A stretch of 62,913 nt of DNA, filler included, from Globobulimina sp. (taxonomy: Eukaryota): the NCBI GenBank assembly GCA_003354225.1. It is 44 parts of 44 records of this genome, joined end to end, with 100 filler letters (N's around TTAATTAATTAA, not from the genome) between each part and the next. Parts side by side here need not be neighbours in the genome. Positions count along the whole stretch, not along the records: positions 58,721 to 60,051 come from PIVH01018524.1; 43 more parts are not named here. One strand, given 5' to 3'. The translations under genes and the position numbers were made by a program. Below are positions 1-62,913 of the stretch, piece by piece. Below the pieces are notes generated by a model. It was not told the DNA's origin and ran no database searches. It saw only the letters and a list, made by a program, of their open reading frames with translations. Within the stretch, counting starts at the first letter, position 1. The number at the start of each line of letters is the position of its first letter.

Positions 1-107
1 TTTATTGCAAGACAGGAACAGGAACAACAACAACATACATTACATAAAAACACAGGTTTGCAAACATATCAAAATTTGTATACTTTATATACAAATGAAA
101 TATTATA

Positions 108-515
108 ATGTTTTCAGAAAATTATAAATGTGATGATGAAATCCGTAAATATTGTGCTGTTCCAAACAATTATAAATGTGCAGCATGTGGCCAGGTGGGT
201 AGTCATTGGATTATGGTATGTCCCCTTCTTAAATGTTATCAAATGATTAAAATAAAAGTTAAAGATTTATTAGATTGTACAAAAAGTACAAAGAAAAACG
301 ACATCGTTAATAATAGTCATAATACAAAACGTATAAAAAACATTACAAATTGGTTATGCGCTGCATTGCGTAAAGTACCAATCTGTCAAAACAGTATTAT
401 GTTAAAGAATATTTCATTAAATATATCAAAATCTGCTGTTTCGCTCTTATTAAACAAAATTTCGTATCCAAATCTTTGGATTATCGAGAAAATGTTGAAA
501 AAAATCATTCAATGA
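108..515 (+). CDS. Zinc-knuckle-containing protein fragment (gene model uncertain)
   Basis: VPNNYKCAACGQVGSHWIMVCP resembles the RBBP6/Mpe1-type CCHC knuckle (P-x-x-Y-x-C-x2-C...HW...CP). Confidence 0.45.
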   Translation: MFSENYKCDDEIRKYCAVPNNYKCAACGQVGSHWIMVCPLLKCYQMIKIKVKDLLDCTKSTKKNDIVNNSHNTKRIKNITNWLCAALRKVPICQNSIMLKNISLNISKSAVSLLLNKISYPNLWIIEKMLKKIIQ

Positions 516-1042
516 ACAAAAACGTTTATGTGCAAGGATATAATGCGTGATATAATGATACTATATGTGTAATAATAATGGAGTGCTGATACCAAATTAT
601 CTGCCTTGTGATCTGTATGCAGTGCATAATGAGTTTGTAGTTATTGTGAATATGAATAACATGTTTCTCGTCTTAGCAGATCAAACACAGTGTGTTATGA
701 TTTAAGTGGTTATTTTGAATATAAATAACGTGATATGTCGTCAGGTGAAGCTGTATTTGTATCTGCATGGGATTATTATTGTACATACTGTAGCATAAAT
801 TTGTGTTTCTATATATTATGACACAGCGAAATGTGTAACGTGTTTGCTTTGTTTAAATTGTATATTGTTTGTTGCAATTGTATTAATTTTGTTTTTTCAT
901 TCCACATTTTATTAATTGTATGTTTAATTAATGTCATTGTCAGAATAAAATCATAAATATCGCTTGCTTTAAAAATGTGTTTTTTTTAAGCTTTTTTTTA
1001 GTAGCATCTATATTAAATCTCTCGCCGCATTTGTTGTATATC

Positions 1043-1334
1043 ATGTCCAAGCCAAAGGTATCAAATGATAATAAAACTGAAGAAGCAGAAGAAGAAAAGA
1101 TACAGATAAATAATTCGAAAAGTACAGATTTATTACGTTTAGATATTCATTCGACCGACGATAACGGAGTAACGAGAATTAGTGTCATCGCACCAACATT
1201 AAAAAAAAATTCAAAAAGATTACCAGTAATGATTTGTTGTGTTGTGGACACTTCCGGTTCAATGGGATGCGATGCAATTATTAAAGACGCAAATGGCAAA
1301 TCAGAATCGCACGGTTTATCAATATTAGATTTAG
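1043..1334 (+). CDS. von Willebrand factor A domain protein, 5' fragment
   Basis: ATG at 1043; ICCVVDTSGSMG carries the DxSxS MIDAS motif; truncated by the contig end. Confidence 0.8.
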
Positions 1335-1434
1335 NNNNNNNNNNNNNNNNNNNNNNNNNNNNNNNNNNNNNNNNNNNNTTAATTAATTAANNNNNNNNNN
1401 NNNNNNNNNNNNNNNNNNNNNNNNNNNNNNNNNN
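1335..1434. other. Artificial contig linker N44-TTAATTAATTAA-N44 (first of 43, recurring every ~1.43 kb until 61483..61582)
   Basis: Identical 100-bp spacer with stop codons in all six frames separates blocks of steadily decreasing length (1334 to 1331 bp). Confidence 0.99.
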
Positions 1435-1479
1435 AATGCAAAACAATCAAACAAAAACTCATACAAACAAGTCAGTCAA

Positions 1480-2768
1480 TTATAAACGTTTTACTCTGAC
1501 ACCGATTGGTGGATTGATAGCATTCACTCCATTAAATACAGTTTTAATTGGTTCTTTGATGTCTTCTTCATTTTCACAGTCGAATGTATAATTCAGCAAC
1601 AGATTTCCCATAACAATGCACAACTCTTTCACAGCTAACTGCTGACCTACCTATCATATATATATGTGTTTGTGTATTTTGTAAGAAAGAAAGAAAAAAA
1701 AAGAGATATTTTTTTATGTGACGTGTACATACACAATCCCGTCTCCCTTTCCCAAATGTAATGAACGACTTATTCTTCTCAAATTTATTTGTCTTTTCAT
1801 TGATCCAATTTTCCAAACACATATTCTCTGATGAATCCACCCAATGCTCTTTCTCATTTTCTTTGTGAATCAACTCGATTGAACAGACAATTATACTGTC
1901 TTTGGGAATGACGCATGTTTGATTATTTTCCATCGTTACTTCCACATCTGATGTTGTATAATGAGGGATCAACATCTGTGCCACACTCGAGACTCTAATC
2001 ACTTCAAATATGAATGCACGAAAATATACCAATTGATTCAGCCAATTTATATCAAATCTTTTCATACCCCTCATATTTGCATCATCAGTCACATTTCGGT
2101 TGAAACACTGGATCAATTCATTTCGAACTTTTTGTTGAATTTGTGGGAATTTGCATGACAGAACAACTGCAAAATTGAGTGTTGATGAGGTGGTATCAGT
2201 TCCTGCAGCAAATAATACATGCATATCTGCTTGTGCTTCTGATTTTGACAGTTCTTTTTCTGCGTAATCAATGTAAAATGTTTCATCTTTGTTGGCAATT
2301 CTATTTTGTTTGGCCATCTTTATAAATTTATTATATATGTCATCAATTCTTTTAAAAATGTCAATAATCCGATCATAATTGGAATATGGATTTAATTTCA
2401 ATAAATATAAGAAATATTTTGGAACTCTCAAATAAAAAATGATTGAGAATAACAACTGAAATTGTTCTGTAATGAGTTGAATATAATGATGATATACTGG
2501 GTTATTATAAGCAATAGAACACCCAAAATTGGCATAAAATATGGTATTGAATGCACAATATTTCATGAGTGAAGATGGATACCACAACTGTTTTGTTTCT
2601 GATAATTTATTCAATTCAGAAAATACTACATTTTCCATACTTTCGTCGCATATTTTATTCACAAACGAGGCAGTGCACATTCGAAAGAGTATGCTCTGTG
2701 CTAACTTACGTCTTTTACGCCACTCTTTTCCATTTAATGAGGCAAAGGGTAGAGTAGGTCGGAAACAA
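1480..2768 (-). CDS. Cytochrome P450, 5'-truncated, one intron (1651..1732)
   Basis: WxxxR (WRKRR), I-helix AGTDTT and ExxR (EVIR). Splicing GT..AG at 1732-1651 restores the heme motif FGKGRRDC|VGQQLA; stop TAA at 1480-1482. Confidence 0.95.
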
Positions 2769-3239
2769 NNNNNNNNNNNNNNNNNNNNNNNNNNNNNNNN
2801 NNNNNNNNNNNNTTAATTAATTAANNNNNNNNNNNNNNNNNNNNNNNNNNNNNNNNNNNNNNNNNNNNCTTCGACAACGGAGGGTGAGCAGAAAATGTCG
2901 GGTGAGGAGGAACATAGTGGTCACCAAATTATTCGTTGTCTCCGCGGTTATCAACAAAATCTGATTTAGGCTTTTCAGAACACGGATGGTGTATGTGGCT
3001 GATTATGAGCATAGTGATGGAGGCAAAAGGGATAAGAAATATTTACGGATTTCTCGACAGATTGAGAATGAGAATGAGAATGAGAGTGAAGCAGCAGTTG
3101 CAATTGAAGGTACGGATGAGGATGAAGATGAAGATGAAATGCATCCGTTTGTATTTTAAATATGTTCTACCTTTCATCTTTTGGATAAAGTCTAGTCTTT
3201 TAACACTACACACTAAATTGGTGAAAATCGTGAAATCAA

Positions 3240-4202
3240 ATGGCTACAATTTTCAAACAAACAAAGCATATTGTTTTAAATTCAATATTGCTGACATTCT
3301 CAGTGTATTTGACAATCGCTCAAGATACATTGCCCAAATGCACTGCAATAGACAGCGTAAATAATGCTTCTTTTGGAAATGGTTTTAATCAAATTTCAGA
3401 GGGTACAACAATATTTAATTTTGGTGGTGCCTGTTCGTCTCTTCCTGATTATGGTAATGGCTGTGCTGGATTCACTACAACTGGTTATTTGTATGGATAT
3501 CACGACTTATCAAATTATGAAAATAACCGGTTTATGTTTGATTCAGTCGCTACGAGTATTGATAGGTTGGCTGTTCGTGAATATGTGACAGTATCATATG
3601 ATTGTGTTGGCACTTTACAATCTCCGGCCACATGGATACCATTAACTGTTTATTCAGAAACTCCATCAGATCTGGACCCCAATATAATGTTGAATAGAAC
3701 CTTTATACTGCCAGCTATTTGTGATAACAATGCCAATGTCGGTGTCAGAATCGATCATCCCATCACTACTCAATTCACTCTCATTAAAAATATGTGTATC
3801 AATGGCGAAAAAACACCGACATCAGGTATGATTGCACTTTTTTTATATACAGACACTTGTTTGTATACACATATATATAATATCATGATAAAAGCACCAA
3901 CGTTGGCTCCCTCATCGAATCCATCATCGAATCCGACAATATCTGTTTCAGAGAGCCCATACGAGAGTGGACAGTCAGAGGATGATTCAAATTCTTTTTC
4001 TGAGAGTGGAGATAGAAAAAAAAGGAAAAAAAGAAAAAAAAGAGGCGGTTCAGGCTCAGGCTCAGGCTCAGGCTCAGAGAGTGCGGATGAAGCACTATTT
4101 GCGGCGCATAGTGATAATGAGCAGATGGAGAATAATAATGAATATATATTAAGTTTAGGTTTTAGCAATTTTAGTTTGATAAATATCTGGTTATTATTTG
4201 GA
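3240..4202 (+). CDS. Secreted/surface protein: signal peptide, beta-rich Cys domain, P/S/T stalk, probable C-terminal membrane segment; in-frame intron 3826..3894
   Basis: Hydrophobic N-terminus; removing the GT..AG intron gives a PTSAPT stalk; hydrophobic stretch at the contig end. Confidence 0.65.
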
Positions 4203-5735
4203 NNNNNNNNNNNNNNNNNNNNNNNNNNNNNNNNNNNNNNNNNNNNTTAATTAATTAANNNNNNNNNNNNNNNNNNNNNNNNNNNNNNNNNNNNNNNNNN
4301 NNGAAAAATTTGCTGACACATATACTGAGCTGGCCTTGGTAACCATTTTTGATATAATTTGACTGAACTGTTTGAGCATTAAGTTAGAACTCAAAACAAC
4401 CAAGTTTTAATTTAGTAAATTTAGAAAATATGGCTCAATATGGTTGTCACTCCATTTCCCGCAAAAGTTCTCCATACAACATCGGAAGGAAATCCGTTAC
4501 CATGTTACCATACATGTTACACTGGTTACTTTTAAAATTACCATTAAAAGATTAAACACCTTACCCATTTCTTTGTACACAGTTACAACCCAATCAATAA
4601 TCTATTCTGCCATAAGACAATGATTTTCCCATTTTGTTTTATTGCCAAGACTACCAGGGGTTCACATTTGCCAATTCAACAAATTTACAATCAACTTCTT
4701 CTAACCATTTTGCTGTCACTCCTGATTATTGTCTTTTACACTCCTTTTTCTTCTAAAATATAAGTTCATTTACATACATAATGTTCTCCATCTGTTCTCC
4801 GTAAACAGCCATATTTTAGAAAAATTGTTAGCCATGACGGGTTACGGTAACAAATGGCAAATGACAATGAACGCCGCCAGTTACTGTCTCGAACGATTTC
4901 AGGCAAATACCATATAAATACTAATCTTAGAAAAATTGAAAACTTCTGGCCAACCTTTTACTCTTCCTAACTGTCATAAATAGTATGGATGATTTGAATC
5001 ACACTTCCTCCAATACTTCTGATCCAGGACACCTTTGGGCACATTTTCACAGATCCATTACTGGGGTCGCAGCGAAACCATTCCATAAATTTCAAGGCAA
5101 ATTTGTGACTAGTCCGAACATCCACCACCATCTGGCCAGACTGAAAGTGTCCGTGCAGTTCTGTCCATTTTCGCCAAAATTCATGTTTCGTTCCATTATG
5201 TGCCATAACGCCACGATATCATTTCCCATGAACAAAAAGTGTCACATTACAGTATCCCCGTACCATAAATAATCATCCCTAAAAACATTGATTGGCCAGT
5301 ATTGTCCTAAATAAAAATTTGCGGGACCACCCCACAATGTAATTTACGATTAACAAATGCATGTACCTTCACAGTAGTATGATCGAATTCCCCATAATTT
5401 ACAGTTACCAAAACATTCCAACTTTGAAACTTTAATCGGACGGTCCACAAACATTCCATACAGACGGGTTCACACATGTACACTTCCATATTTTGACCAT
5501 AATCAAGTTACCACTTTTATTGTCGACATTCTCATAATTGCATTACTGTCCTGTCGTACCATTACTGTCCATTATTACTGATGACTGCTGTCTTCTTGAT
5601 GGTTATGTTAGTTATTGATTCAATACTCGGAAAATNNNNNNNNNNNNNNNNNNNNNNNNNNNNNNNNNNNNNNNNNNNNTTAATTAATTAANNNNNNNNN
5701 NNNNNNNNNNNNNNNNNNNNNNNNNNNNNNNNNNN

Positions 5736-7068
5736 ATTTATTCAAACACCACTTCAAATTTACCAGTTGATGTCGATTCATATAATATAACAATAACTGG
5801 ACAATATCTTGACACATTGGATTATATAGAAATGGTTACAGACAGTCTATCAATAAACACTTTTATTGATTCAGCAAATCAAATCACTGTTGATATTTTA
5901 TCCGCAACATCGACTGTTTGTGGTTTTTATGATTTATCAATGATATTGACATCATCAGAAACGGGACAACAAATTCAATCGTATGATGCTGTATTTTCGG
6001 TATTCACTGGATTTGTTCCGGTAATACATACAATAATTCCGTTATATTCAACTGTAAATTCAAAAATTTATATTCGAAATGATGATAAATATCAACAATT
6101 TAATTTTAGTGACACTATAATTTGTAAATATGACTTGGAGACCAAAGATGAAAATGGTAACACACAATTATTTGATACAAATGGTTTATGGATTAATCCT
6201 CAATTAATATCATGTATGACACCGAATGTTGCAATGCAAACTATAAATATCTCCGTTTCATTTGATAGTGTTCGATATTCAAACACTTTGTTTGTTTATA
6301 TCATACCAACACCGTCAATTATTAGTATATTACCCACAAATAAAGTCTATCCCTCTCAGAATATTGAATTTATAATAATTGGTTCAAATTTTATAGAAAC
6401 ATCCAAATCAACATTGCCAGCATGTCATTTTGAGCATATTGTTACTGGAGATATCAAAATGTCGCGTGCAATAATTATTGATTGTAATACATTAAGTTGT
6501 TATAAACCAAATTTTATTAATTCAACAGATGGTAATTATACAGTTGCCGTTACATTTGATGGCTTTTCTATTTATCAACTCGATGATGCATTGTTGGAGG
6601 TATCATCTATTTATTCACCACCAATCATCCATTCATTTATTGGATCAAATTTTGGTGATTATGACAGCGGAGTTTCAGTATCCATTAATGGTTCGTATTT
6701 CCGTTCTGGCTCAACCCGATGTCAATATACTGTTTATTTTGAAAATTTTGATAATGACGCAGTGATTAAGAATTCATACATCACAGATTATTTGGTTAAT
6801 ATTACTGTTCATTCGGATACATTGATTACATGTATTTTGCCATCGTATCATGAAATTATAGAGCAAAGTGAATATATTGAGTACAATACCAAGTATGTTA
6901 AACATGTTGGGCCAGAATCAAGACAAAGGATATATATTAAAGCTATTAATGCATTCAATGAAAGTGGAGATATTGTTGGTTTGTGGTATGAATATAGGTC
7001 AACACCATCCGTTTATAGTTTTTATCCTTCTCAAATATTTGATGATTCGTCAAATGACATTAATATTA
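5736..7068 (+). CDS. IPT/TIG (Ig-like) repeat surface protein, internal fragment
   Basis: Repeated P-x-I-x-S-I-x-P ... G-S-N/Y-F ... C-x-F ... I-x-C-x-x-P modules in an ORF spanning the contig. Confidence 0.8.
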
Positions 7069-7168
7069 NNNNNNNNNNNNNNNNNNNNNNNNNNNNNNNN
7101 NNNNNNNNNNNNTTAATTAATTAANNNNNNNNNNNNNNNNNNNNNNNNNNNNNNNNNNNNNNNNNNNN

Positions 7169-7652
7169 TAGTATAACCTTTTGATTGTTTCTTTGCATGT
7201 TTGGATACAGTTAATGGCTCACTTAAATCAATGACACATCTTTTTTTATGCAATTTTGGTATCATTAGGTAAAATTGATCTGGATGTGATTTTGTGTACC
7301 TGTAGTTCTGTGGAACTTCTTCTGCAACGACTAAAAAACCATTGTATACTAACTGACTATAAAATATTGGATCCCAATCTAATGACCAACACAATTCACC
7401 GTTCACTTCATCTAAAGTTGAAATTGTTGTATCCACAAATAATTCAAAATCATTGCACGGGTAAACATGTTGCTGGGAACTATTTTTGATATGTGGATCA
7501 TCTTTCAATTCTTTTTCAAGTTCTTCTTTCATTGGAGATGACCATTTTGGTAATATTACTGTTGGCGAAAATTTGTGTTCCATTGTAAAATTCCGTTTTT
7601 TAACTGCATTTGCACAAAATGTAGATATGATCAATGCGGAAATTAAATTCAT
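7169..7652 (-). CDS. Leucyl/phenylalanyl-tRNA-protein transferase (Aat/ATEL1)-like protein, 5' fragment
   Basis: CWSLDWDPIFYSQLVYNGFL..A, LMIPKLHKKRCVIDL and VSKHAKK match my recollection of the N-terminal block of divergent L/F-transferases. Confidence 0.65.
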
Positions 7653-8618
7653 TACAAATACAACTTTAATATCCAATTAATTAATCTTACTTGCAATCTG
7701 TATTCTGTTTTTTTTGAGTTGCAGGCGGAGAATCGGGCGGAGATTCTAAATTAATTCGAATTTGCGTCCTGGAACAGCGGCAGCTGTTAAAGTTGCTTTT
7801 TTAATATCATGTGACATAATTTCTTCAAAACTTAAGAAACCTCCATGTTATTTGGTAAAAGTCGAAAAAGCGCGGTAAATTGCTGCATCTCATAGGAAAT
7901 TCTGGAAATTCTCCTTAATTTGGGATTTGTTTCCCATTGTTTAAACTTCATGCAATGATATCATTGCATTAATTTTCGAATTAATAGTACGTATATCCCC
8001 AATATTATAAAAAAAAAAGCTATGACAAAACTCATCATAATGCAAAAAAAGCGATCACAAAGTCATGACGAAACAAAACAAATTCATATACGACATGCAC
8101 AACAAAGTCATGACAAAGATAAAAAAACAGCAAGACATAGAAAAAAAGAACTACGTGGCGTACAAGAACAAAAGCCACGCCAACCAGAAAAATAAGCTAT
8201 AAAAAATATAATATAATAAAATAAAGTTAATTAAATTGTGAGTGAGCAGAGCAATATATATGTGATGTGATATTGTAATTTAACATTTGTTTAAAAACGA
8301 TTTTATTTCAGTCAGCGTTCGAATGACTGATGAAGTGACCTTTGATGTATTTGATATATTTGATGCTGCGGTTTCTGTATTAAAAGACAATGTATTTTGG
8401 ACATGGCCAAATGCATTTTTTACGCTATATTCATCCATAACATCCAATGCATGGAAATATATGTTCCTATTTTTATTTTCATTTAATTCCTCACATTTAT
8501 CNNNNNNNNNNNNNNNNNNNNNNNNNNNNNNNNNNNNNNNNNNNNTTAATTAATTAANNNNNNNNNNNNNNNNNNNNNNNNNNNNNNNNNNNNNNNNNNN
8601 NTCATTAATGTGACAATT

Positions 8619-9044
8619 CTAGTGTTCATCAACTACTGAATCAACTCGAAAGCGGATCTTCAAATTCGGATTGTTGTCAGCGTTGCTTGGTAAATCTACA
8701 GTTGCTTGATATTTTATATTTGGTGTAACTGTATAAAACGCATCGTTCCAACTTGAACCATTATTATAACTGATGTCAACATAACAACCTTCAAGCCGTG
8801 CTGGAGTTAGATCAAAATATACGTAAAACTCTACAAATATGTTATTGTGACCTGATGTACTGATGGGATTTATTGGGTACACTGTACTTCCACTACAACA
8901 GGAACCAGATACTCTCCAGCAAAAGATATCAGAACCTGGACAATAAATTCCTCCCGTGAATATCCCATGGACTATTCCAGTTGCAAACCAACCGTCTAAA
9001 TTTCCGCAATCATTTGTGTATATGTCAACTGCTTTGATTGTCAT
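8619..9044 (-). CDS. Secreted beta-sandwich domain protein, possibly frameshifted in the signal peptide
   Basis: DLPSNADNNPNLKIRFR and ISTSGHNNIFVEF resemble the domain in 3240..4202; an upstream ATG with a hydrophobic peptide (MLPVMFIFSL) is in another frame. Confidence 0.45.
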   Translation of the reverse strand: MTIKAVDIYTNDCGNLDGWFATGIVHGIFTGGIYCPGSDIFCWRVSGSCCSGSTVYPINPISTSGHNNIFVEFYVYFDLTPARLEGCYVDISYNNGSSWNDAFYTVTPNIKYQATVDLPSNADNNPNLKIRFRVDSVVDEH

Positions 9045-9142
9045 AAAAACAATTGCAAGCTAAAGATGAACATCACTGGCAGCATGGTTAATAATACTTT
9101 AGTGTTTGTTTAGTCCTAAAAACTATCCATTATTCCTCGCCG

Positions 9143-9521
9143 ATGTCTAGTTATTTAAATGATATTAAGAATGAAAACGAATCGAATATATCAAATATAG
9201 ATGTTCCATGTCATGTATTTTTTTCTGGTGCTTCATGGGTATGTTATATGTGATAAATATGGTTTATGTACATTTCAAATAGGACCGAATCATAATACAA
9301 AGGGCTGTGCATTTCATATTGGTGTTTTAAGAGCAATGCAACAAAAATGGGGACTTAATAAGTTATCAAAATGTACGTTTGTAGCAAACTCATCTGGTGC
9401 GTTAATTGCGTTGTGTGCTGCCATTGGAATGGACTGGAAAGAGGCTGAAAAAAATTATTTACACTGTTTAAATGGTGCAATAAATAATGGTGTTTTTGGT
9501 AAAATGAGCACATTCTATTAA
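9143..9521 (+). CDS. Patatin-like phospholipase, N-terminal part; intron 9239..9302; ends prematurely
   Basis: Splicing gives FFSGASW|GCAFHIGV (oxyanion-hole motif) followed by ANSSGA (variant GxSxG). A stop at 9519-9521 comes before any catalytic Asp (DG) motif. Confidence 0.75.
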
Positions 9522-10232
9522 ATTAATTGGATTTTATTGGATTTGGATTTAATATGAATTTAATGGATTTAATATTTAATGGATATATTAAATCCACAGA
9601 TTTAATGGATTTAATAAATTTAATGGATTTAATATTAATAAGAGGGACCATGGTGGTGCTGGAGAAAGAAAATAAGTCTTTTGTTTAAAGTGTTTTTATC
9701 TTTTGTTTAAAGTTTTCCTTTTCAAGATATTTTCAATTTGTTCTGGTTTCCCTTTCAATGCAATTGACGCATATTTCATAGCAAGAGAATAATAATATCT
9801 ATGGTGATAATAAATATTCACATCAAATTGTTTACCATTGGATTGATAATATGTTTTCAATCCCTTTGCTCCAATGTTTGTTGTTAGCGCTTGCGAATAA
9901 TGAAAGTGACATATTTTCATTATGCTTTTAGTCCNNNNNNNNNNNNNNNNNNNNNNNNNNNNNNNNNNNNNNNNNNNNTTAATTAATTAANNNNNNNNNN
10001 NNNNNNNNNNNNNNNNNNNNNNNNNNNNNNNNNNCTCCAAAAGTTGAAGTCCGATCACCACAATGAAAATTAGCTCAATAGTTGTGACTGTAGTGGTTGT
10101 GTCTGCAGTGTTGTGTTGCATTGAATTGATTCTGCGACAAGGGGTTGTGTTTTGTGTTTCCCATAAAACAACTATTAATAAATCAAATTACTGCATAAAA
10201 ATTACAAAGGAAAAAAGAAAAATCACATTTAT

Positions 10233-11367
10233 TTATTGTTTTTCTCGAGCTCGTTGCAATTGATTCAAAGATCTCCTTAATCGCTTCCTTTTTAGTTTTT
10301 GCTTTTTATTTTTTAATGTTTGTAGCCTTTTCTGTTTATCACTTTGTATTTTCTCCTGCTCCTTGTCAGCATACCATTGTCTTAATTCTTTCTTATCCTC
10401 TTTTGTCTGCTTCAAATGCATCAATATCTTTAACCTATGTCCATTCAAATTATATCCATTCAATTTTAAAATTGCTTTTCGTGAATGTGATTCCTTGGCA
10501 AATTCAATAAAAGCAGTGCCTGCAAATAAATCCTTACGATGATTAATATGCAATTTTATTACCTCGCCACATTTACCAAATACAGCCATCAATTGTTCCT
10601 CTTTTGTATCCCACGAAACATTGCCAACATCGATGCATTTGGAACGTCGCACCAATTCATCTAAACACAAATTATAAATTATGCATTATCCTCATCAGCA
10701 AACACAAAAACACAAAAACACAAAAACATACTATAAATTTGCTTGACATCACTGCCATATTCGACGGATTCATCATATTCACTCTGTGTCGAATACCTTG
10801 AATATAATTTAAATTCTGTATCATGCTTATTTTTATACGATACGTTTCTTGTAATTTTTAACGCTTTGACACAATCTCCAACACTCTCAAACTGCACAAA
10901 TACTTGCGATACCAATGAATATTTAAAAATTAAACTCATTCTTTTAACGTTTATGTTATGGGAATATAGGAATTGTAACACTCTATTTTTTGTAGTGTCG
11001 ATTGGAAAACCAACACATTTTAAATAGAATGATTTCTTACTAAATTGATTTGAATCTCTGTCTTGAACCCATGTCGCAGAGAAATTATGTTTATGAAAAG
11101 ATTTTTTATTTAATATTTTTACATATTTATCTGCATTCTTTTCATCATTGAATTCAATGTAAACTTTTTTATAAATTTCGCTGTCTGAATGACGTTCGAA
11201 TGCTATATAATTTATAATGTCTATCGCGGCTTTATTTGGTTTGTTGACTAATTTTATAATATCAACTTCGCTGAAATTCAATGGTATTGGTTCAATTACA
11301 ATTGTTTTCGTTTTTGATTCTAAAAAATCACCTTTTTTTAACACAATTTGTTGGACAGTGGCCCGAC
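10233..11367 (-). CDS. Multi-RRM RNA-binding protein, 5'-truncated, intron 10661..10731
   Basis: Three RRM-like units (VYIEF, VFVQF, IDVGNV...GTAFIEF) joined by a GT..AG intron; basic C-terminus. Confidence 0.85.
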
Positions 11368-11467
11368 NNNNNNNNNNNNNNNNNNNNNNNNNNNNNNNNN
11401 NNNNNNNNNNNTTAATTAATTAANNNNNNNNNNNNNNNNNNNNNNNNNNNNNNNNNNNNNNNNNNNN

Positions 11468-11905
11468 TGGTTTTAATATCTTTTTTAATTTGTTCAGACA
11501 ATTGCCCAATTTCGTCAAACTTATAACCAGATTTGGTGTAAATGGGTGCATTGAAATGTGGTATATCGTCATTTTCGGAAATTGATTTGAAAACTAGTTG
11601 TTGTTCAATCCGATGTAACAACTCCGCGAATTCTATGTCATCAATTTTAGAATTTGTTTTCATAAAATAAAACAATTTGATCACAATACAAAACCTTGCG
11701 TGTTTTGCTCGGTTGGAGGTTCGGAAAATCTGCCTCTGAATCCTCCACCGCCTCTGCCTCGGCCTCGACCACGGCCACGGCCCCGACCACGACCACCGCC
11801 ACGGCCTCTGCCTCTGCCCCGGCCGCCACCTCTTCCGCCATAGCCTCCTCTTGATCTGCCGCCGAAATTTCTGCCTCCTCCTCTGGTAAAGCCACCTCTG
11901 CCCAT
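11468..11905 (-). CDS. GAR1: H/ACA snoRNP subunit GAR1, 3'-truncated, intron 11633..11694
   Basis: RGG-rich N-terminus, then EPP...LLHRIEQQLVFKS...IPHFNAPIY matching the Gar1 core (VPYFNAPVY). Confidence 0.85.
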
Positions 11906-12006
11906 TATGTCAGATTTGTTAGATGTGTGTTTTTGAGTGTGAACAAATGTGGAAATCCTCGCACTTCAGACTTCAGTTGCTTTACAAGACAAATTGGCAG
12001 TTAGTG

Positions 12007-12447
12007 TTAGCGTAGATTAGTACTGCTGGTTTGCGGTCGAACTCCCAATGTCGGATCAACGATTCTCTTTTGATATTCCAATAGCATTTCATCAATGTCC
12101 AGTTCTTTATGTTTCAATGAATTTTCATATTCCACTGATTTGTAAACATCGCCTCCTTTTAACTTGGTGTGTGTTTTAATGACAACAATATCTCAGATTG
12201 CAACGGCATGATAAAAATATAAGATATCATACTGACATACCCTCTCAGTTTGGAAATAATAGCATAAAACACCAGCAAATGCAACGAATGTGATCATGGG
12301 TCCAGCCGTTTTCCATAACGTGGATTGTCTAAATGCTCTGAATGTGGCTCTTTTGGTGACTTTCTGCAATTTGAATGAACCATGTTTGGCTGGAAGGGAG
12401 AATTCTTCCACGCGATTTGGATTCACTATCCTTCGGAACCAGTTCAT
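12007..12447 (-). CDS. Small single-TM protein, COX16-like, intron 12163..12240
   Basis: GPMITFVAFAGVLCYYFQTER|LK...KELDIDEMLLEYQ follows the COX16 layout (P-hydrophobic helix-F-x3-R, then D-(L/I)-x-E). Confidence 0.4.
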
Positions 12448-12498
12448 ATTTTAATACTAAAATTTTTGCCAGCTTAAATCTACTTTACTTTTACTATC

Positions 12499-12800
12499 AT
12501 GTCAGCTGTGGCAGATACGGCAGAAGGAAGTGGTGAGTCGCAATTAACCACATGGTTGGTAGAGAATAAATTGTCATCGTTATTTAAAAACGACAGGTTT
12601 ATGCAACAAGAATTAGCATTGCAAGATTTTCTTGAATTAAATGATGAGGAATTGCAGTTAAATGATAATGTATATTTGTTGATATATATTTGTGGTTTGC
12701 TTTTGTGTGACGTACAGCGAGTTCCTTAGAGACGATTTGAAATTGGGTGTGATGGAAGCAAAGAAGTTTAAAAAAGCGATGCGAAAATTGCAAGGAAAGC
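12499..12800 (+). CDS. SAM-domain protein, 5' fragment, intron 12657..12717
   Basis: Spliced product LTTWL...L...F...L...L.ELNDEEL|HEFLRDDLKLGVMEAKKFKKAM fits a SAM fold. Confidence 0.6.
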
Positions 12801-12926
12801 NNNNNNNNNNNNNNNNNNNNNNNNNNNNNNNNNNNNNNNNNNNNTTAATTAATTAANNNNNNNNNNNNNNNNNNNNNNNNNNNNNNNNNNNNNNNNNNNN
12901 ATTTGGTTAGGGACGCCAAGTGATAA

Positions 12927-14091
12927 CTCACCTTACGCACCGCAGATTTACGCCCCTTGCAGCCTAGCTAGAATTGGTTAGAATTCATCCCTCGTTTAAA
13001 GGGAGATTCACCAGATGGATATGCTTGATATTTATACGGATTACCTGATTTGCCAAAATAAATATGCAACAGCAACAGGCTTATCAGATATGTTGGACGG
13101 TGACATTTCACACGATAAAGTGACGCGATATCTTCGTACAGAGAACGGCGGTTCAAAATCGCTCTGGGCTTTATGTAAAGCCTACGGTTCGAGAACAAGA
13201 ATCCTCTTGGAGGAGTATTGATCTTAGATGATTCTATTGAGGAAAAACCATATACGGATGAGAACGAAATTAACTGTTGGTACTACTCTCACGCGAAAGG
13301 CGAGGTGGTTAAAGGAATTAATATCCTTTCATGTATGGTCCGATATGATGATTTCAGTGTGCCTATAGGGTATGAAGTTATTAAAAAGGAGCTTGTATAC
13401 AGCGATATAAAAACAAAGCGTGTCAAGAAAAAGTCCTCAATTTCTAAAAATGAGATATTTCGTAGTCTACTGAAACAAGCTGCCGCAAATAAAGTGCTAT
13501 TTGATTATGTGCTGGCAGATAATTGGTATGGCTCAAAGGCCAATATGGCGTATATCCACAATGACCTTCGAAAATCGTTTATTATCGGAATTAAGTCCAA
13601 TCGGACATTAGCTTTATCCAAAAAACGACGCCGACAACGGGACGGTATCAATCATTGCGCTCATTAGAGCTAGAAGAGAATATAGCTCACACAGTCTGGC
13701 TTAAAGGCCTAGACTTCCCCGTGCAGCTCCTGATAAAAGTTTTCAAAAACGAAAACGGCTCAACAGGTATTCTCTATCTGATTTCTAATGACATGCATAG
13801 TAATGCTGAACGTCTTTACGAAGTCTACCAGAAACGGTGGCGGATTGAAGAGTATCATAAGTCAATTAAGCAAAATGCGAGTTTAGCAAAGTCTCCAACA
13901 AAAAAAGCAAAAACCCAATGTAATCATATATTTGCATCGATTATTGCATACTGCAAATTGGAGTTTTTGAAAATAAAAACGAACCTAAATCATTTTGCAA
14001 TTAAATATAAATTAATTCTTCGGGCAAACCAGGTTGCGATGCGGGAGCTAAAAAATATGACTGGTTAGATGGGACTGGTGCGTAAGGTGAG
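12927..14091 (+). mobile_element. IS701-family bacterial insertion sequence (1,165 bp)
   Basis: Perfect 15-bp terminal inverted repeats CTCACCTTACGCACC (12927..12941) and GGTGCGTAAGGTGAG (14077..14091) flank a DDE transposase. Confidence 0.9.
13015..14068 (+). pseudogene. IS701-family DDE transposase broken into three frames
   Basis: SHDKVTRYL, LILDDS..EKP, VLADNWY and YQKRWRIEEYHK motifs; frameshifts near ~13180-13220 and ~13620-13655 (the latter at an A-run). Confidence 0.85.
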
Positions 14092-14333
14092 AACTTAAAT
14101 AAAATTTTCTCTTCTTCCCTCTCTTCTTTCTTCTTTTCTTTCTTCCCCCTTTTTTTTCGCTGGTCCTCTTCTTTTTTTCTTTTCAACTCCTTGTTTTTTT
14201 TTTAGAAAACTCACCTTACTCACCCGTCCCATCNNNNNNNNNNNNNNNNNNNNNNNNNNNNNNNNNNNNNNNNNNNNTTAATTAATTAANNNNNNNNNNN
14301 NNNNNNNNNNNNNNNNNNNNNNNNNNNNNNNNN

Positions 14334-15666
14334 GGAAGGATATTCTGCGATTATTCATGGTTTGGTCGAGGGAGTCAATATAAAATATAAGCAAATTGTA
14401 CATACCATCGATTGGAATGAGGATGAAATTAAGGTGTATGCCAATGGCGAGGCAGACGATAACAATAAGAATGAGGTTTTACTTTTACATCAATTTATCA
14501 TGCTTTTTTTTACCAATTTATGTTCGATTTCATTTATATATAAAACACATGCACAGAGTGAGAGGGTCTATTGTGGCGACGCAGTGGTTGTGACCTTACC
14601 GTTGGGCGTCTTGAAAAATGGCGACGTAGCGTTCCAACCAAGTCTGCCATTATGGAAAACCAACGCTATCTCCTCCATTGGTTACGGCCTATTAAACAAA
14701 ATATTTTTGAAATTCGACACTATATTTTGGGACGTCGAGAATGATTACGTTGGCTACGCCTCCTCCATTCATGGCGAATTTTATTTATTTGTCAACTTAG
14801 TGCCCGTGGCAGGGACACCGGTGTTGATGTCCTTAGTCAGTGGCTCATTCGCCGCCAAATTAGAAGAAAAATGCGAGTCTGAAGTGGTGAAGTATGCCAT
14901 GCAGATCTTGGAGAATATATTCTGCAAAAAAAGCAAAAAGAAAAGTAAAAAGAAAGGCATCCCGCAACCCATCGATTATTATATTACGTCGTGGGGAAAG
15001 GACCGCTTTTCCCGCGGCAGCTATTCGTACATAGCCCATGGTTCGAGCGGCGATCATTATGATAAGTTGTCGTACTCTGTGGGGGACAAAATATACTTTG
15101 CCGGCGAGCATACGATACGCAAATGGCCAGCCTCAGTGCACGGCGCTTATCTGAGTGGCATACGCGAAGCGAGGAAGATAATGAACAATCATTATATTCA
15201 TAACGTGGACAAACTGCCGGATAGAAAGAGAGGGAAACGGCGGAAAATAGAGAACAGTCAGTTGTTGAAAGCGTGTTTGACGCAGTATCCAACGGATACG
15301 ATTTTCAAACCCATTAAGGATGTGACTATACGGATGAGTCAGAGGATAAATAACAAGAAACAAAGGAAAATACGGCAGCGCAGCAATCAGAATGAGAGCA
15401 ATCAAGATATTTCGTCTATGTCTGATACTTCGTCAGGGACAGAGGCGGAGGACATTGATTTGGGTAAAAGGCAAACATTGACCTGCACGTTGTGTGGGGG
15501 AATGGGGTATTTGTCAAATGAGGAGAAGGAGGATATGGATGATGATGGCAAGAAAATGAAAAAGAAATGCAAGAGCAAAAGGAAAAAGAATGAGAAATTA
15601 ATCGGTCCGTTTGCTTTGGAGGAGAATAATAAGATTTATATACATTATGGCTGCCGGGAATGGAGC
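14334..15666 (+). CDS. LSD1-like flavin amine oxidase with C-terminal extended-PHD-like zinc finger, fragment; in-frame intron 14476..14556
   Basis: DAVVVTLPLGVLK, GYGLLNK, W..D.FSRGSYS and FAGEHT..WPASVHGAYLSG.REA, followed by CTLC...GPF...IHYGCREWS. Confidence 0.88.
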
Positions 15667-24901: not shown

Positions 24902-24956
24902 TAAACTAAGTAGAGTTATATCTTATAAACATTTACATGACGTTTAAAATCAACGA

Positions 24957-25695
24957 ATGCTGATACAATATTTATTAAACGCTCTCATTAATGGAAGTAT
25001 AATAGCAATACTAGCAGTTGGTTTTGCAATAGTATATAACACTACAAGAATTTTCCATATAGCATACGCAGCTTTATACACTTTATCAGGATATTTGTTT
25101 TATCAGTTTTTCGAGATTACCGGAATGCCATTTATTATAGCTTTATTGTTAAGTATTATAATAACTTCCGGCGTAAGCCTTGCTTGTGACATATTGATAT
25201 ACAGACCACTGGCAAAACGAAACGTAGGGTTACATCCATTGATGATCGCATCTATTGGACTCCTTATCATCATAAACAATATTATAATCCTAATATGGGG
25301 GAATTCGCCAAAAATCATTACTCAATCCGAGCTACTAAACATTGGTGTATTTGGCATTGATAGCAACAGACTATTGTATTTTATTTCTTATCTCGCCGTA
25401 CTATCTATAATATTTATCATTCTGAAAAAAAGTCGATTTGTAACGGTAATGCGTGCCATCCGTGATAATCTAACTTTGTCATCTGTTTTGGGCCTTAATG
25501 TTTACAGTTATCGATCAAGGATATTTATTTTCTCAGGCATTATCATAGCATTTGTTGGATCGTTGCACTCATTTGATATTGGTGTTAATCCAGGTGCTGG
25601 ATTGCCAGTCTTTATATATGCTTTTATAGCCCTGATAATTGGTGGAATAGGACGATTTGAGGGACCAATTCTAGGTGGATTTTTCATAGGTTTCC
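24957..25695 (+). CDS. livH: Branched-chain amino acid ABC transporter permease, 3'-truncated (bacterial)
   Basis: QYLLNALINGS..A.LAVGF.IVY.TT.IFHIA, RPL, MRA..DN...S..LG.N and FIALIIGGIG...G...GG; no introns. Confidence 0.9.
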
Positions 25696-57771: not shown

Positions 57772-58620
57772 TTAACCTTGATTAGCTTTTGGCTTTTTCC
57801 TTTGATCATATTGTTTTTTATATTGTTTTAATTTATTTTTATTTTCTTTTTGATATTGTGATTGATATTGTTGTTGATATTGTTTTAATTCATTTTCATT
57901 TTCTTTTTGATATCGTTTTTGATATTGTTTTAATTCATTTTCATTTTCTTTTTGATATTGTGGTTGATATTGTTTTTGATATTGTTTTCGATTTTGAAGA
58001 GATTCTTGTTTATTTTTATGCATCATCCCTTGATGTATGTGATATCCACGTAAGGAATCAAAACATTTATTACAATTTAAACATTTCATTTTTTCTTTGC
58101 TAATTTTAGCTTTCTCAGTTTGTTCATCTGCATGAGGTAATTTTCTTTTTCTAGGAACTGGTAATGGATTTAAGCCAGGAGTTTCAAAATCATTTACTAA
58201 AACATCATCATCAGAATTAGATGTTTCAGATTTTTCAAATTCATCAAATCTTCGTTTTCTTGAAACTGTTTGGCTAGATATTATTGGAATTGGAACTAGA
58301 CTTAAACTTTTCAATTTAGAATTTAATGATGAAATTGTTGTATCTCGGGAAATAATTGAACCTATTTTTTGTTTTTTTTTGGGGTTTTTTAGGGTTGTTT
58401 TTTCCATTTGGAAAGCCATAAACCATGACTGGTTATATATATTATTATAAATTTGGTCCACTATTTTTTTTGAGTTTACTCTAATTTTCCAGTCGTTAGC
58501 AATGCTTAAACGTTCAGACATTGACATTCGTGTTAATGTTGGCTTGGTGTGTTTTTTGTTAATACCAAATCTTTTGGCTTTTTCTTTATATTTTTCAATT
58601 GTTTTAGGACTGAATGTTTT
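57772..58620 (-). CDS. C2H2 zinc finger protein with QYQKENENELK repeats, possibly transposon-derived
   Basis: CLNCNKCF..L.GY.IH.G.MH followed by 39-bp coding tandem repeats. Confidence 0.55.
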   Translation of the reverse strand, partial: KTFSPKTIEKYKEKAKRFGINKKHTKPTLTRMSMSERLSIANDWKIRVNSKKIVDQIYNNIYNQSWFMAFQMEKTTLKNPKKKQKIGSIISRDTTISSLNSKLKSLSLVPIPIISSQTVSRKRRFDEFEKSETSNSDDDVLVNDFETPGLNPLPVPRKRKLPHADEQTEKAKISKEKMKCLNCNKCFDSLRGYHIHQGMMHKNKQESLQNRKQYQKQYQPQYQKENENELKQYQKRYQKENENELKQYQQQYQSQYQKENKNKLKQYKKQYDQRKKPKANQG

Positions 58621-58720
58621 NNNNNNNNNNNNNNNNNNNNNNNNNNNNNNNNNNNNNNNNNNNNTTAATTAATTAANNNNNNNNNNNNNNNNNNNNNNNN
58701 NNNNNNNNNNNNNNNNNNNN

Positions 58721-60051
58721 AAATGTTCTATTTTTGGCACTGAGGAATTTTACGATTTCATGATGACGTACAATTTCATGATGACGAATACAGTGGTCAT
58801 GTTTGCTTCATTAGACGCCCCAGCAATAAGAAAGCCCTCCAGCTCGATTTAAGGATAATCTATCTTGACCTCGAATCAATTTTTGACTCTGAAGGTTACC
58901 ATCAATGTATCTTGGCAGTTGCTTTGCGTACATGTGGTCAATGCTGTCTCAACTACGATGCAGAAGAAACATTGTGCTGTGGTACAAGAAAACATGTTTT
59001 TGGAGGAGTCAGTTGTCTCGAACAACTTGTACGATGGCTTTTTTTCCATCCTATGCATAGAGGTGCAAAAGTTGTTGCCCAAGCGGGGTCATTTTATGAT
59101 GCACTAATTTTGTTTCGTGGTCTAGTTGAACTTGGTCACACTGCCAAACTCGCTGTTCGAGGCAATCGAATTTTGACAATGACAGCAGGTTTATCAGTAA
59201 CGGTCATTGATGCATACTGTTTCTTTGGAGTAAGTCTAGCCAAACTAGCACCAATGTTTGGGTTGGAACTTCAGAAGTCATTTTTTCCAATGAGTTTTTT
59301 GAGAACAAACCAAATCAACTACCAAGGAGTTGTTCCACCCAAACAAACTTTCGAACCAGAATTAATGACAGATAAACGAAAAAAGGATTTTGAAATTTTC
59401 TATGAAAATCTCAAAAATCAGCAGATTTACTGCTTCAAATCGGAGTTAGTGAAATACTGCACTTTGGGTAAGTTTTGAGCACAGTTTAACCATTCTTAAT
59501 ACCACAATTACTTAATAGATACCAAAGTGTTATATATGGCCTGCACGAAGTTTCAACAACTCATGATAGATGGTACCGGAGTAAATCCGTTTGCAATATC
59601 AACTTCAATAGCTTCATTGTGTGTTTTTCTCTACAAACTTCGTTTCATGCTTGTCAATGAACACGGAGAAAGCAGAATAGCGCTGTTACCAGAACACGAT
59701 TTATGTGCTCGTGGGCTTTCTGTTCAGTCTGACTTGGCACTGAAATGGATTGCTTGGTTGAGACATTCACAGGGTTTACCAATACAATCAGCTCTTACTG
59801 GTCGTGAGCCTATCATTGGTATGGTTACAATGGTCTTTGAATCGAACAAATAAACAGTAAAATATTATTTTTGTATAGGAAATCGCTCAGTTGATGGTGT
59901 ATATGTGTTGGCTGACCAACTACCGGAAATTGTTCAATTTCATGGGTATGCTAATTTAAATTTTTGTTGACTGTTAATATTATTATGCTTATTACAAGTT
60001 GTTTTGTTCATGCTCATACACCGTCATGTCCAAACGTAACAGAACAATGGT
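58721..60051 (+). mobile_element. Polinton/Maverick-type protein-primed DNA polymerase B fragment with introns 59468..59518, 59819..59878 and 59946..59998
   Basis: ExoI IYLDLES, ExoII-like AQAGSFYD, IDAY.FF..SL.KL...FGL..K.FFP, ExoIII YCTL|D and SIASL, then the inserted QS..AL.W..W...E..I|G...VDG...QFHG|CFVHAH domain. Confidence 0.88.
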
Positions 60052-61032: not shown

Positions 61033-62144
61033 CTAACGCCAAAAATGACACATAACAGACAAGAATAATCAGTGTAGGTCAGACAGACTAAACTATGTCA
61101 CCAATGGTTGATATATTTGCCATCCAACTTGAAAGAGACTCTGCGAAATAAAAACGAACCCGTCAGTATTTTCAACATTTTTGGATTTATGAAATGTATA
61201 CAAAAATTGTGCAAGGATTTCAAATATATTAAAACGACGTTCATTTTTGATAAAAATTAACACACTCACAATCAACTTATTTTATTTTTTACATTACAAT
61301 TAAAAAAAAAATATGAGGAGAGCTCCACTAAAACAGCAGTCCACACAGAATGGTGTCACAAATGGAAAACAATAATTCAATGACAAAAATTATGTCATTT
61401 AGTTGTATAAAGTATAAAAACATGGACAAAAAACATGTGATAAAAATAGGTTTTAATGGAAAGTTCTTTATCGATGATTCCGNNNNNNNNNNNNNNNNNN
61501 NNNNNNNNNNNNNNNNNNNNNNNNNNTTAATTAATTAANNNNNNNNNNNNNNNNNNNNNNNNNNNNNNNNNNNNNNNNNNNNGCGGCAGCGGCGTTTTCT
61601 CGTTGCCCGATTGACCATCTTTGGTCTTTGGTCGATCTCGCAATAATCCATGTTCATCGATAAATTGGTCATATATGTTTGACAGGCCTCTGGCCGATCG
61701 AAATTCAAATGGTTTGACTTCAACCTGTTTACCCAACGTATATTTTAATTTATTATGTTTTAATTTTTCCTCAATATTACCAACTGCATCTACAAAATCC
61801 ATTTTTTTCTCTTGCTTTACGTCATCATCGTCATCGTCGTCATCATTCTCTTGCCTACCAATACCATGGCCAACATTTCTTACAATATCTTCTTCTTTAT
61901 GCGGTGCACCAAATGCAATACAAAAATCAACTTGAAATGGACATATTGGCTGTTGTCTAGTTTTTGCCGCTTGCAATCTGCCTCTGACAAAACCAATGGC
62001 CGCATCAAAATATCGCACAATATTCTCATACGAATCATTTACCGTTTTTAAATTCTTAGTATACAATTAATAATACATAATAATAATTGATTATAACCGA
62101 ACCGGTGTGTTTGTATGGCCGGCAATTATTATTATGATACAGTA

Positions 62145-62913
62145 TCATACCTTAAATTGTAATTTTGGGCCACATCTCTTATCATAACTCTTCAAAGCAC
62201 CCACAGCAATGTCATAGGCATCTTGCGGACCTTTTTTTTCTTCACGCAGTTCACGCCACTTATCTGTAGGTTTATTGTTAAAATTATTGCGTGCTTCGAG
62301 AGTTGCAGCTTCATCGCACCTCCATGGTGCTATAAATTTAATATTCTTTAATTTGCTGAAATGTGCATGATCCAGACACCACTCCTCAATGTTTATCGCG
62401 GTTTGTTTGATATCGATGTTTCTGACTCTGCCCCGTTGATAATCATCCACTAACAACTGCAGATAATCGAATTTATATTTCCTCCCAATCGCTATGGCGT
62501 AAGTAAAGGATTTATCTGTAGCCATACCAGAATTCCATAAGGTGGGACATTGCAATTTATATAAAGTTCTGGTCTCAATATATTCGTTTTCAGTGATTGT
62601 GTATAAATATTTTAATGTACTATTTGACAAATAACATTGCGGCAGTTTCCGATCAAAAACGCGGTCTGGTTCGTCGTAACATTTTTTAATTAAATCAAAT
62701 TTAAATTCTTTCTTTTCCCTCGAGTTTATGTTATATAATTCATGCAGAAAAGGAAAGTTTGGATCAAAATCAATTATGGTAGATTCTGTACCTTCGTCGA
62801 GTTCCGCTAATAAATCAATGTCATTATCATAGCAATACTCAGAAAATAAATAATAGTATGATTTGTTGATGCTTCTATAATATCTTTTGAGTGCTGTGCA
62901 GGTTGCGTCCACC
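62145..62913 (-). CDS. Hypothetical protein fragment (may be spliced to 61583..62064)
   Basis: Open frame of about 255 codons ending at a GT donor-like site (AAG|GTATG); family not recognised. Confidence 0.55.
   Translation of the reverse strand, partial: VDATCTALKRYYRSINKSYYYLFSEYCYDNDIDLLAELDEGTESTIIDFDPNFPFLHELYNINSREKKEFKFDLIKKCYDEPDRVFDRKLPQCYLSNSTLKYLYTITENEYIETRTLYKLQCPTLWNSGMATDKSFTYAIAIGRKYKFDYLQLLVDDYQRGRVRNIDIKQTAINIEEWCLDHAHFSKLKNIKFIAPWRCDEAATLEARNNFNNKPTDKWRELREEKKGPQDAYDIAVGALKSYDKRCGPKLQFKV

Follow-up and report, generated by a model that had tools for sequence, protein, structure and literature searches.

A Polinton/Maverick-type protein-primed DNA polymerase gene with three predicted spliceosomal introns in a Globobulimina sp. 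assembly

The window analysed here (positions 1-62913, 62,913 nucleotides (nt) with filler) is taken from the Globobulimina sp. assembly GCA_003354225.1 and consists of 44 unrelated contigs of 1331-1334 nt each. One of them, PIVH01018524.1 at positions 58721-60051, carries part of a gene for a DNA polymerase of family B (PolB) that is protein-primed and of the Polinton/Maverick type, read on the plus strand and interrupted by three predicted introns. The stretch 58721-60051 is an entire assembly contig of 1331 nt with a GC content of 0.379; it has N/TTAATTAATTAA linkers on both sides, and its neighbours in the window are unrelated to it. Exon 1 (58744-59467; 724 nt, 241 codons and 1 nt) encodes the exonuclease domain with the ExoI and ExoII motifs and the first half of ExoIII. 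Intron 1 (59468-59518; 51 nt, GTAAGT..TAG, phase 1) divides ExoIII (YCTL|DTKVL) and is followed by exon 2 (59519-59818; 300 nt), intron 2 (59819-59878; 60 nt, GTATGG..TAG, phase 1), exon 3 (59879-59945; 67 nt, GNRSVDGVYVLADQLPEIVQFHG), and intron 3 (59946-59998; 53 nt, GTATGC..AAG, phase 2), which lies within the conserved G|C of an xFxGCxxH motif. Exon 4 (59999-60051) is open at the contig end and begins a nuclease-like insert rich in Cys and His (CFVHAHTPSCPN...). As the sequence stops at 60051, the remainder of this insert and the entire polymerase domain, where motifs A, B, and C and the TPR1/TPR2 insertions would lie, are past the contig. What is present is the 3'-5' exonuclease domain and, after it, the beginning of the nuclease-like insert.

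A sequence-only reading of the contig had proposed a protein-primed PolB, and database searches support this assignment. The translated frame of exon 1 (P0001, 241 amino acids (aa)) matches the Pfam family DNA_pol_B_2 with an E-value of 3.3e-10 and 39.9 bits, over the curated cut-off of 25.8 bits, and exon 2 alone has no Pfam match. P0001 was searched exhaustively with HMMER against 1.84 billion representatives, which gave 1438 relatives at E<=1e-3, of which 276 were at E<=1e-10. The closest among the matches listed are P0003 (275 aa, 78% identity), which comes from a different source and one 2006-nt contig, and P0004 (42% identity); the remainder show at most about 35%. The long relatives are 900-1545 aa in size and their exonuclease domain begins 300-800 residues in. 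DNA_pol_B_2 is the sole catalytic family found in them, and some carry C2H2 zinc fingers at the N-terminus.

The structure of the domain was modelled from the sequence of exon 1 with AlphaFold, using a 29-row alignment. The model has a pLDDT (predicted local distance difference test) of 86.1 and displays the DEDD exonuclease fold of family B polymerases. Its top Foldseek matches were the exonuclease regions of the Tgo/KOD, phi29, and pol delta polymerases, with a probability of 1.00 and E-values from 6e-4 to 5e-3, and it also resembles TREX exonucleases. For phi29 polymerase (PDB 2PYJ, 2PZS, 1XHX) the folds match with a root-mean-square deviation of 3.2-3.5 over 162-167 columns, and the DEDD-type catalytic residues are shared. 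On the other hand, phi29 polymerase is only 10-12% identical, retains the ExoII Asn, and is encoded by a phage whose genes have no introns. By sequence, neither a single-protein nor a profile query gave a significant match in PDB, to phi29 polymerase or otherwise, and the ESM Atlas match for exon 1 pointed to the same Pfam family and nothing further.

The three introns have a lower GC content (0.29, 0.25, and 0.21 in the order of the gene) than the exons (0.39-0.42), and each unspliced frame meets a stop within its intron. Excision of all three leaves 1144 nt, or 381 codons, without stops or frame shifts. Both versions were aligned to a profile made from 44 of the 150 listed relatives, namely those that span the exonuclease domain and run at least 230 residues past it. 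The unspliced frame scored 245.6 bits; it showed a 17-codon, stop-containing insertion between YC(T) and D of ExoIII, and the alignment ended at intron 2. The spliced product scored 297.8 bits and aligned without a break over profile positions 22-371, including GNRSVDG and FHGCFVH. As a control, 1205 stop-free alternative excisions with either boundary shifted by up to 15 nt were scored, and each of the top scorers listed kept the lengths 51, 60, and 53 nt. The eight placements listed for intron 1 and for intron 3 contained no GT-AG pair other than the called one, which came within 0.5 bit of the highest score. The eight listed for intron 2 did not contain the called pair, and placements shifted by 1-3 nt scored 298.1 against 300.1 for the best.

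The boundaries, the stop-free spliced frame, and the unbroken profile alignment thus confirm the three GT-AG introns of 51, 60, and 53 nt proposed earlier, and the motifs said to be rebuilt by their removal (YCTL|D, EPII|GNRSVDG, and QFHG|CFVHAH) were reproduced in the spliced product. All three introns have GT..AG ends, and their excision restores the frame and the conserved protein sequence, as is characteristic of U2-type introns. As judged from these sequence features, their identity as spliceosomal introns of the U2-type GT-AG class is well supported. The three are unlike each other, and a search for introner-like repeats matched them elsewhere in the window only over 9-15 nt, which is no more than chance gives. 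Elsewhere in the window, on the minus strand of the contig at 61583-62913, a GT-AG excision at 62055-62150 (96 nt, GTATGA..AAG) joins two open reading frames (ORFs) into one open frame. This 96-nt intron is short and of host type, and its donor style is the same as that of introns 2 and 3. Since such an excision joins ORFs on another contig, short introns of this style appear to be at home in the assembly.

Diverged copies of the gene exist and appear to share intron 1. The sole run containing the contig, X1, has Logan contigs at a depth of ~3 that cover positions 58905-60044 with 0 differences, and two further contigs of this run are diverged copies. One of these paralogue contigs covers 59051-59123 with 9 differences, and the other covers 59515-59639 with 25 differences. 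The alignment of the latter begins 4 nt before the intron-1 acceptor and is preceded by 105 unlike letters, a pattern that would be expected of a copy with a diverged intron at the place of intron 1. In addition, P0003 ends with ...YCTM and then GKFSLAVYH, as reading on through a GTAAGT-type donor at the intron-1 codon would give. In view of the P0003 read-through and the second paralogue contig, intron 1 therefore seems to be older than the divergence of these copies.

Out of the 34 differences between the contig and its paralogues, the 15 that lie away from contig ends were listed, and 11 of these fall at third codon positions (binomial P 0.0018). They change 12 codons, nine of them synonymously; the three that alter the residue are T>I, I>V, and T>C. 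Two of the synonymous changes, at 59085 and 59088, lie within the QAG of ExoII. As the paralogue differences are mostly synonymous, the intron-bearing gene evidently evolved under constraint and does not look like a case of plain decay. Such constraint fits an active element lineage and a domesticated gene alike and does not separate the two.

For 74 of the 150 listed relatives, the match to the profile breaks off before position 455 with 60 or fewer residues left. In nineteen of the 74 it breaks off between positions 354 and 365, close to the G|C of intron 3 (within 6 profile positions), and the other 6-position bins hold 1-5 each. The 19 are P0005, P0008, P0010, P0011, P0015, P0022, P0024, P0030, P0034, P0062, P0078, P0098, P0104, P0119, P0128, P0130, P0133, P0147, and P0151. 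At this site several relatives end in G with no tail, and others run on with VS.. or GK.., which would be the translation of GTAAGT or G|GTAA. The pattern suggests that introns at or near the intron-3 site may be widespread in the polymerase family. Alternatively, the pile-up could result from assembly breaks at a conserved motif or from a gene-calling effect, and the apparent phases differ.

The catalytic residues of the exonuclease were compared with 81 of the 150 listed relatives, i.e., those whose match spans query residues <=45 to >=235. ExoI reads YLDLES (58861-58878, plus strand), and its D and E (D42 and E44 of exon 1) are each present in 81/81 of the aligned relatives. D119, in ExoII, likewise matches all 81 relatives, and in ExoIII, Y238 and the D that follows are joined only once intron 1 is removed. 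The whole D/E/D/Y/D set is therefore present, with DxE in ExoI, D in ExoII, and YxxxD in ExoIII. ExoII itself (59077-59100, plus strand; residues 112-119 of exon 1) reads AQAGSFYD where AHNxxxYD is usual, just as had been noticed from the sequence. It keeps the catalytic D and has Q and A in place of the usual H and N; the usual Asn of the pattern H-N-x-x-x-[FY]-D is absent. At these positions H occurs in 76/81, N in 69/81, and D in 81/81 relatives. Gln for His was seen, against the 81 aligned relatives, only in P0003 and the contig gene. The Asn is replaced by Y, G, C, F or A in 12/81 relatives, about one in seven, and is also missing from the PolB of the IMG/VR contig L001 described below (AHYSKGYD).

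A tree built with FastTree from 84 sequences over 276 columns placed the gene in a clade of 14 with a Shimodaira-Hasegawa-like support of 0.885. The ExoII Asn is missing in 10 of the 14 clade members versus 3 of the 68 other aligned relatives. Because the Q/A form is common to the contig gene and P0003 and has been kept through synonymous changes in the paralogue, and because loss of the Asn is enriched in the clade, we consider the ExoII change a stable lineage trait and not damage. The sequence-only reading had raised a decaying gene with possibly impaired proofreading, and this part was not supported: the five catalytic residues are intact, the altered ExoII recurs in P0003 and in the paralogue, the Asn is replaced in other relatives including L001, and the differences between copies are mainly synonymous. 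In phi29 polymerase the ExoII Asn is N62, a ligand of single-stranded DNA, and its mutation lowers exonuclease activity. A quantitative effect of the ExoII change on proofreading is possible, and the result is a caution against equating the loss of a supposedly invariant Asn with the loss of proofreading.

The genomic context of the family was approached through IMG/VR, where a search with an alignment of ten full-length relatives gave six loci. One of these, L001, is a contig of 15 kb (ORFs surveyed over 1-14461) that encodes an uninterrupted, intronless PolB of 1413 aa with a DNA_pol_B_2 match, and its exonuclease domain is 28% identical to that of the contig gene (E-value 5e-20). Before the best DNA_pol_B_2 stretch this PolB has a nuclease-like DUF559 match of 20.3 bits, just below the cut-off of 20.6. 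An rve integrase (28.1 bits, below the cut-off of 32.6) adjoins the PolB, and a Pox_A32-type ATPase (42 bits) is found farther along. The gene set of L001 is that of a Polinton/Maverick. Five more ORFs of L001, 239-584 aa in size, had no Pfam match and are possibly capsid genes. The weak DUF559 insert beside the rve integrase and the Pox_A32 ATPase agrees with the earlier statement that such a nuclease-like insert is typical of Polinton/Maverick PolBs.

At the family level, the identification of the contig gene as a Polinton/Maverick-type protein-primed PolB is correct. With the Polinton/Maverick polymerases (PF03175; the PolB of 'Alpha' adintoviruses; pPolB1 of Jeong et al. 2023) it shares the Pfam family, the catalytic residues of ExoI and ExoIII, the GCxxH nuclease-like insert after the exonuclease domain, and a Cys-rich stretch before ExoI (the CxxC itself not being in the contig's polymerase frame), and its relative in L001 adjoins an rve integrase and an A32-type ATPase. 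Unlike them, it has three introns and the Q/A form of ExoII, and among the matches listed its identity is at most 42% except to P0003. In the classification outlined in PMC8502044, OTU together with a pfam03175 PolB defines the 'Alpha' class of adintoviruses/polintons, the PolB being also shared with bidnaviruses. PMC10748475 gives 20,702 integrase-linked pPolB1 genes from 960 eukaryote genomes and 30 phyla.

The introns set the gene apart from published descriptions. The sequence-only reading had remarked that Maverick genes are usually intron-poor, and the core genes for which published passages are available fit that remark. Intact vertebrate Mavericks are described as having intronless ORFs, most vertebrate Maverick loci being degraded, in the part of PMC8097293 that deals with them. 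In the nematode Maverick carrying Cpli-wasp-2, as presented in a passage of bioRxiv 10.1101/2022.07.12.499685, the core genes are intronless and the cargo genes have introns, and a methods sentence of PMC10120064 takes endogenous polinton-like viruses to be without introns. Full-text literature searches, which did not extend to subscription papers, supplements, or Repbase annotations, found no published case of a Maverick pPolB gene with spliceosomal introns.

The contig probably represents an intron-bearing lineage of Polinton/Maverick-type polymerase genes. The best explanation, to which we give a fair degree of confidence, is a Maverick-type PolB with three introns in a lineage that has long been resident in an intron-using host. 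Several observations weigh against it. L001 stands outside the clade around the contig gene (14-15 members), and this clade was not found in IMG/VR or in metagenome contigs of the Joint Genome Institute. Metagenome scans with P0001 and P0003 gave no close relatives, IMG/VR scans with P0001 and P0005 gave none, a scan with P0006 gave only the zinc-finger match L007, and a phage collection gave no tblastn match. Because the clade was not found in the contig collections and L001 is outside it, the Maverick link holds at the family level only. On the 1.3-kb contig, which reaches neither end of an element, genes for an integrase, ATPase, protease, or capsid are not seen, nor are terminal repeats, and the intronless core genes that are a usual, not strictly defining, trait of Mavericks are here replaced by a gene with three introns. 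As the intact Maverick core genes in the passages cited above are intronless, a coding sequence of 1.1 kb with three introns is at least equally compatible with a host gene. The constraint test covers 15 listed of 34 differences from two short, low-depth contigs, which is a small sample. No RNA run containing the stretch 58721-60051 was found, and the case for splicing is made from the DNA sequence. Finally, a stop at 58741-58743 closes the polymerase reading frame, which is the sole sign of damage.

This stop is a TGA on the plus strand with 20 nt of contig before it, and it lies next to an 18-nt tandem duplication (58751-58786, plus strand; 2.0 copies, 94% matches). The duplication is in frame and encodes FHDDVQ/FHDDEY where P0003 has a single FHDDDY, and within it the 14-mer ATTTCATGATGACG occurs at 58755-58768 and at 58773-58786. 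The duplication had earlier been said to disturb the 5' frame. The 14-mer does occur twice, but the 18-nt repeat leaves the frame intact and it is the TGA that closes it. In another frame, the 20 nt before the TGA read KCSIFGTEEF, faintly like CRHCNQFVEF of P0003, and the AG at 58743-58744 after a T-rich stretch is a candidate intron acceptor. The CxxC that is conserved before ExoI in the relatives was not found in the polymerase frame of the contig, and none of the X1 contigs covers 58721-58904, the 5' duplication included. The closed frame may mean that the copy has undergone a frame shift, that 58743-58744 is an intron acceptor, or that the assembly, at a depth of ~3, is in error here.

Of the other explanations, the one that survives best is that a viral or transposon pPolB was captured by the host and is now an ordinary intron-bearing nuclear gene, or a small family of such genes, that is no longer mobile. 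The density of introns and the sharing of intron 1 with P0003 (78% identity) and with a paralogue speak for such a gene, as do the mostly synonymous differences between copies and the frequent loss of the ExoII Asn in the nearest clade. The literature also lends it weight: PMC10675990 contains a passage in which introns in viral genes are treated as a sign of domestication, and intact Maverick genes are described as intronless in passages of PMC8097293 and bioRxiv 10.1101/2022.07.12.499685. The Cymbomonas endogenous viral genes of that first passage resemble the contig gene in being virus-type nuclear genes with spliceosomal introns, and differ from it in that several diverged copies exist for the contig gene. 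However, at least two diverged copies in one sample together with the closed 5' frame suggest a repeat family rather than one conserved gene of the host, and purifying selection between copies is also shown by active element lineages. The kept catalytic exonuclease residues are predicted by a domesticated gene and by an element alike. We consider domestication unlikely.

A second alternative keeps a mobile element and changes its kind: the polymerase would belong to a polinton-like virus that lacks an integrase, to an element resembling bidnaviruses, or to a self-synthesizing transposon of a kind not yet described, integrated in the nucleus. PolB of the PF03175 type is common to adintoviruses, bidnaviruses, and various virus-like elements found in unicellular eukaryotes, according to a section of PMC8502044. 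The closest clade has no member with a known context, and the long relatives nearest to the gene have C2H2 zinc fingers at their N-termini. Yet the sole relative with a visible context, L001, has a Maverick-type integrase and ATPase, and a carrier of another kind seems to us improbable. An organellar or cytoplasmic plasmid was considered as the present location of the gene and is ruled out by the spliceosomal introns.

The weakest alternative is a dead pseudogene, in which the three interruptions would be chance insertions and the ExoII change would be decay; the stop beside the 18-nt tandem duplication, the failure to find an RNA run containing the stretch, and the degraded state of most vertebrate Maverick loci (in the same passage of PMC8097293) would suit it, but it is highly improbable in the face of three GT-AG interruptions of similar length and low GC whose removal restores frame and conserved motifs, of called pairs that for introns 1 and 3 are the only GT-AG ones among the equal-scoring placements listed (the intron 2 pair not being among them), of 1144 nt of spliced coding sequence without stops or shifts, of 9/12 changed codons synonymous against the paralogue with the ExoII QAG kept, and of the same ExoII in P0003.

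The rest of the window provides the setting. Its contigs are sorted by length, their GC content ranges from 0.245 to 0.477, and the joints between them are N runs with the TTAATTAATTAA linker, so that apparent features crossing a linker are artefacts. Genes of ordinary eukaryotic kinds (P450, cohesin SA, Nup85, Vps4, ELO, tyrosine phosphatase, CAP-Gly) are found on the other contigs, and a few of these carry bacterial-looking ones. A scan of 42 further long ORFs of the window, on contigs unrelated to that of the polymerase, gave 0 matches to integrase, packaging ATPase, protease, or capsid families, and no RNA family was found by Rfam on the contig 58721-60051. The bacterial-looking genes include a branched-chain amino-acid permease (BPD_transp_2, E-value 5e-26) and DDE transposase pieces (DDE_5, DDE_Tnp_1) at 24948-25694 and 13179-14065, which are probably co-assembled bacterial DNA or transposons. 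On the minus strand at 57772-58668, a frame of 298 aa contains a C2H2-like finger and has a tail of repeated QYQKENENELKQY, which arises from tandem DNA repeats at ~57800-57990. The whole contig at 45843-47171, again on the minus strand, encodes a cysteine-rich repeat protein with units such as ICPSN..C.IYC and has no Pfam match.

If the contig indeed carries a Maverick-type PolB with three introns, the introns imply that transcription of the gene would be nuclear and that its transcript would have to pass through the host spliceosome before being translated. From its family membership, the full enzyme, the polymerase half of which lies outside the contig, would be expected to carry out protein-primed, strand-displacing copying of a linear element. 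The contig copy would then be one member of a small family of diverged copies, with a kept intron position and constraint at the protein level, and it is possibly broken at its extreme 5' end. The unusual point, which is well supported, is the presence of three introns, at least one of them common to diverged copies, in a class of genes described as intronless.

A wider and more speculative reading, which we regard as doubtful at present, is that the clade of at least 14 representatives, the long ones with C2H2 zinc-finger N-termini, has stayed in eukaryotic nuclear genomes over the long term with conserved introns, a relaxed ExoII, and constraint. It would be either a Maverick lineage adapted to host-type expression or the first host-domesticated protein-primed DNA polymerase. 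Were this true, the 19/74 pile-up at the intron-3 site would be an old intron common to much of the family. Screens for endogenous Mavericks and polinton-like viruses often use prokaryote-style gene callers, the elements being taken as intronless, as a methods sentence of PMC10120064 indicates, and such screens would leave an intron-rich polymerase lineage fragmented and under-counted. The lineage would also bear on how such elements persist under host-type gene expression, and it would be a candidate case for the domestication of a protein-primed polymerase.

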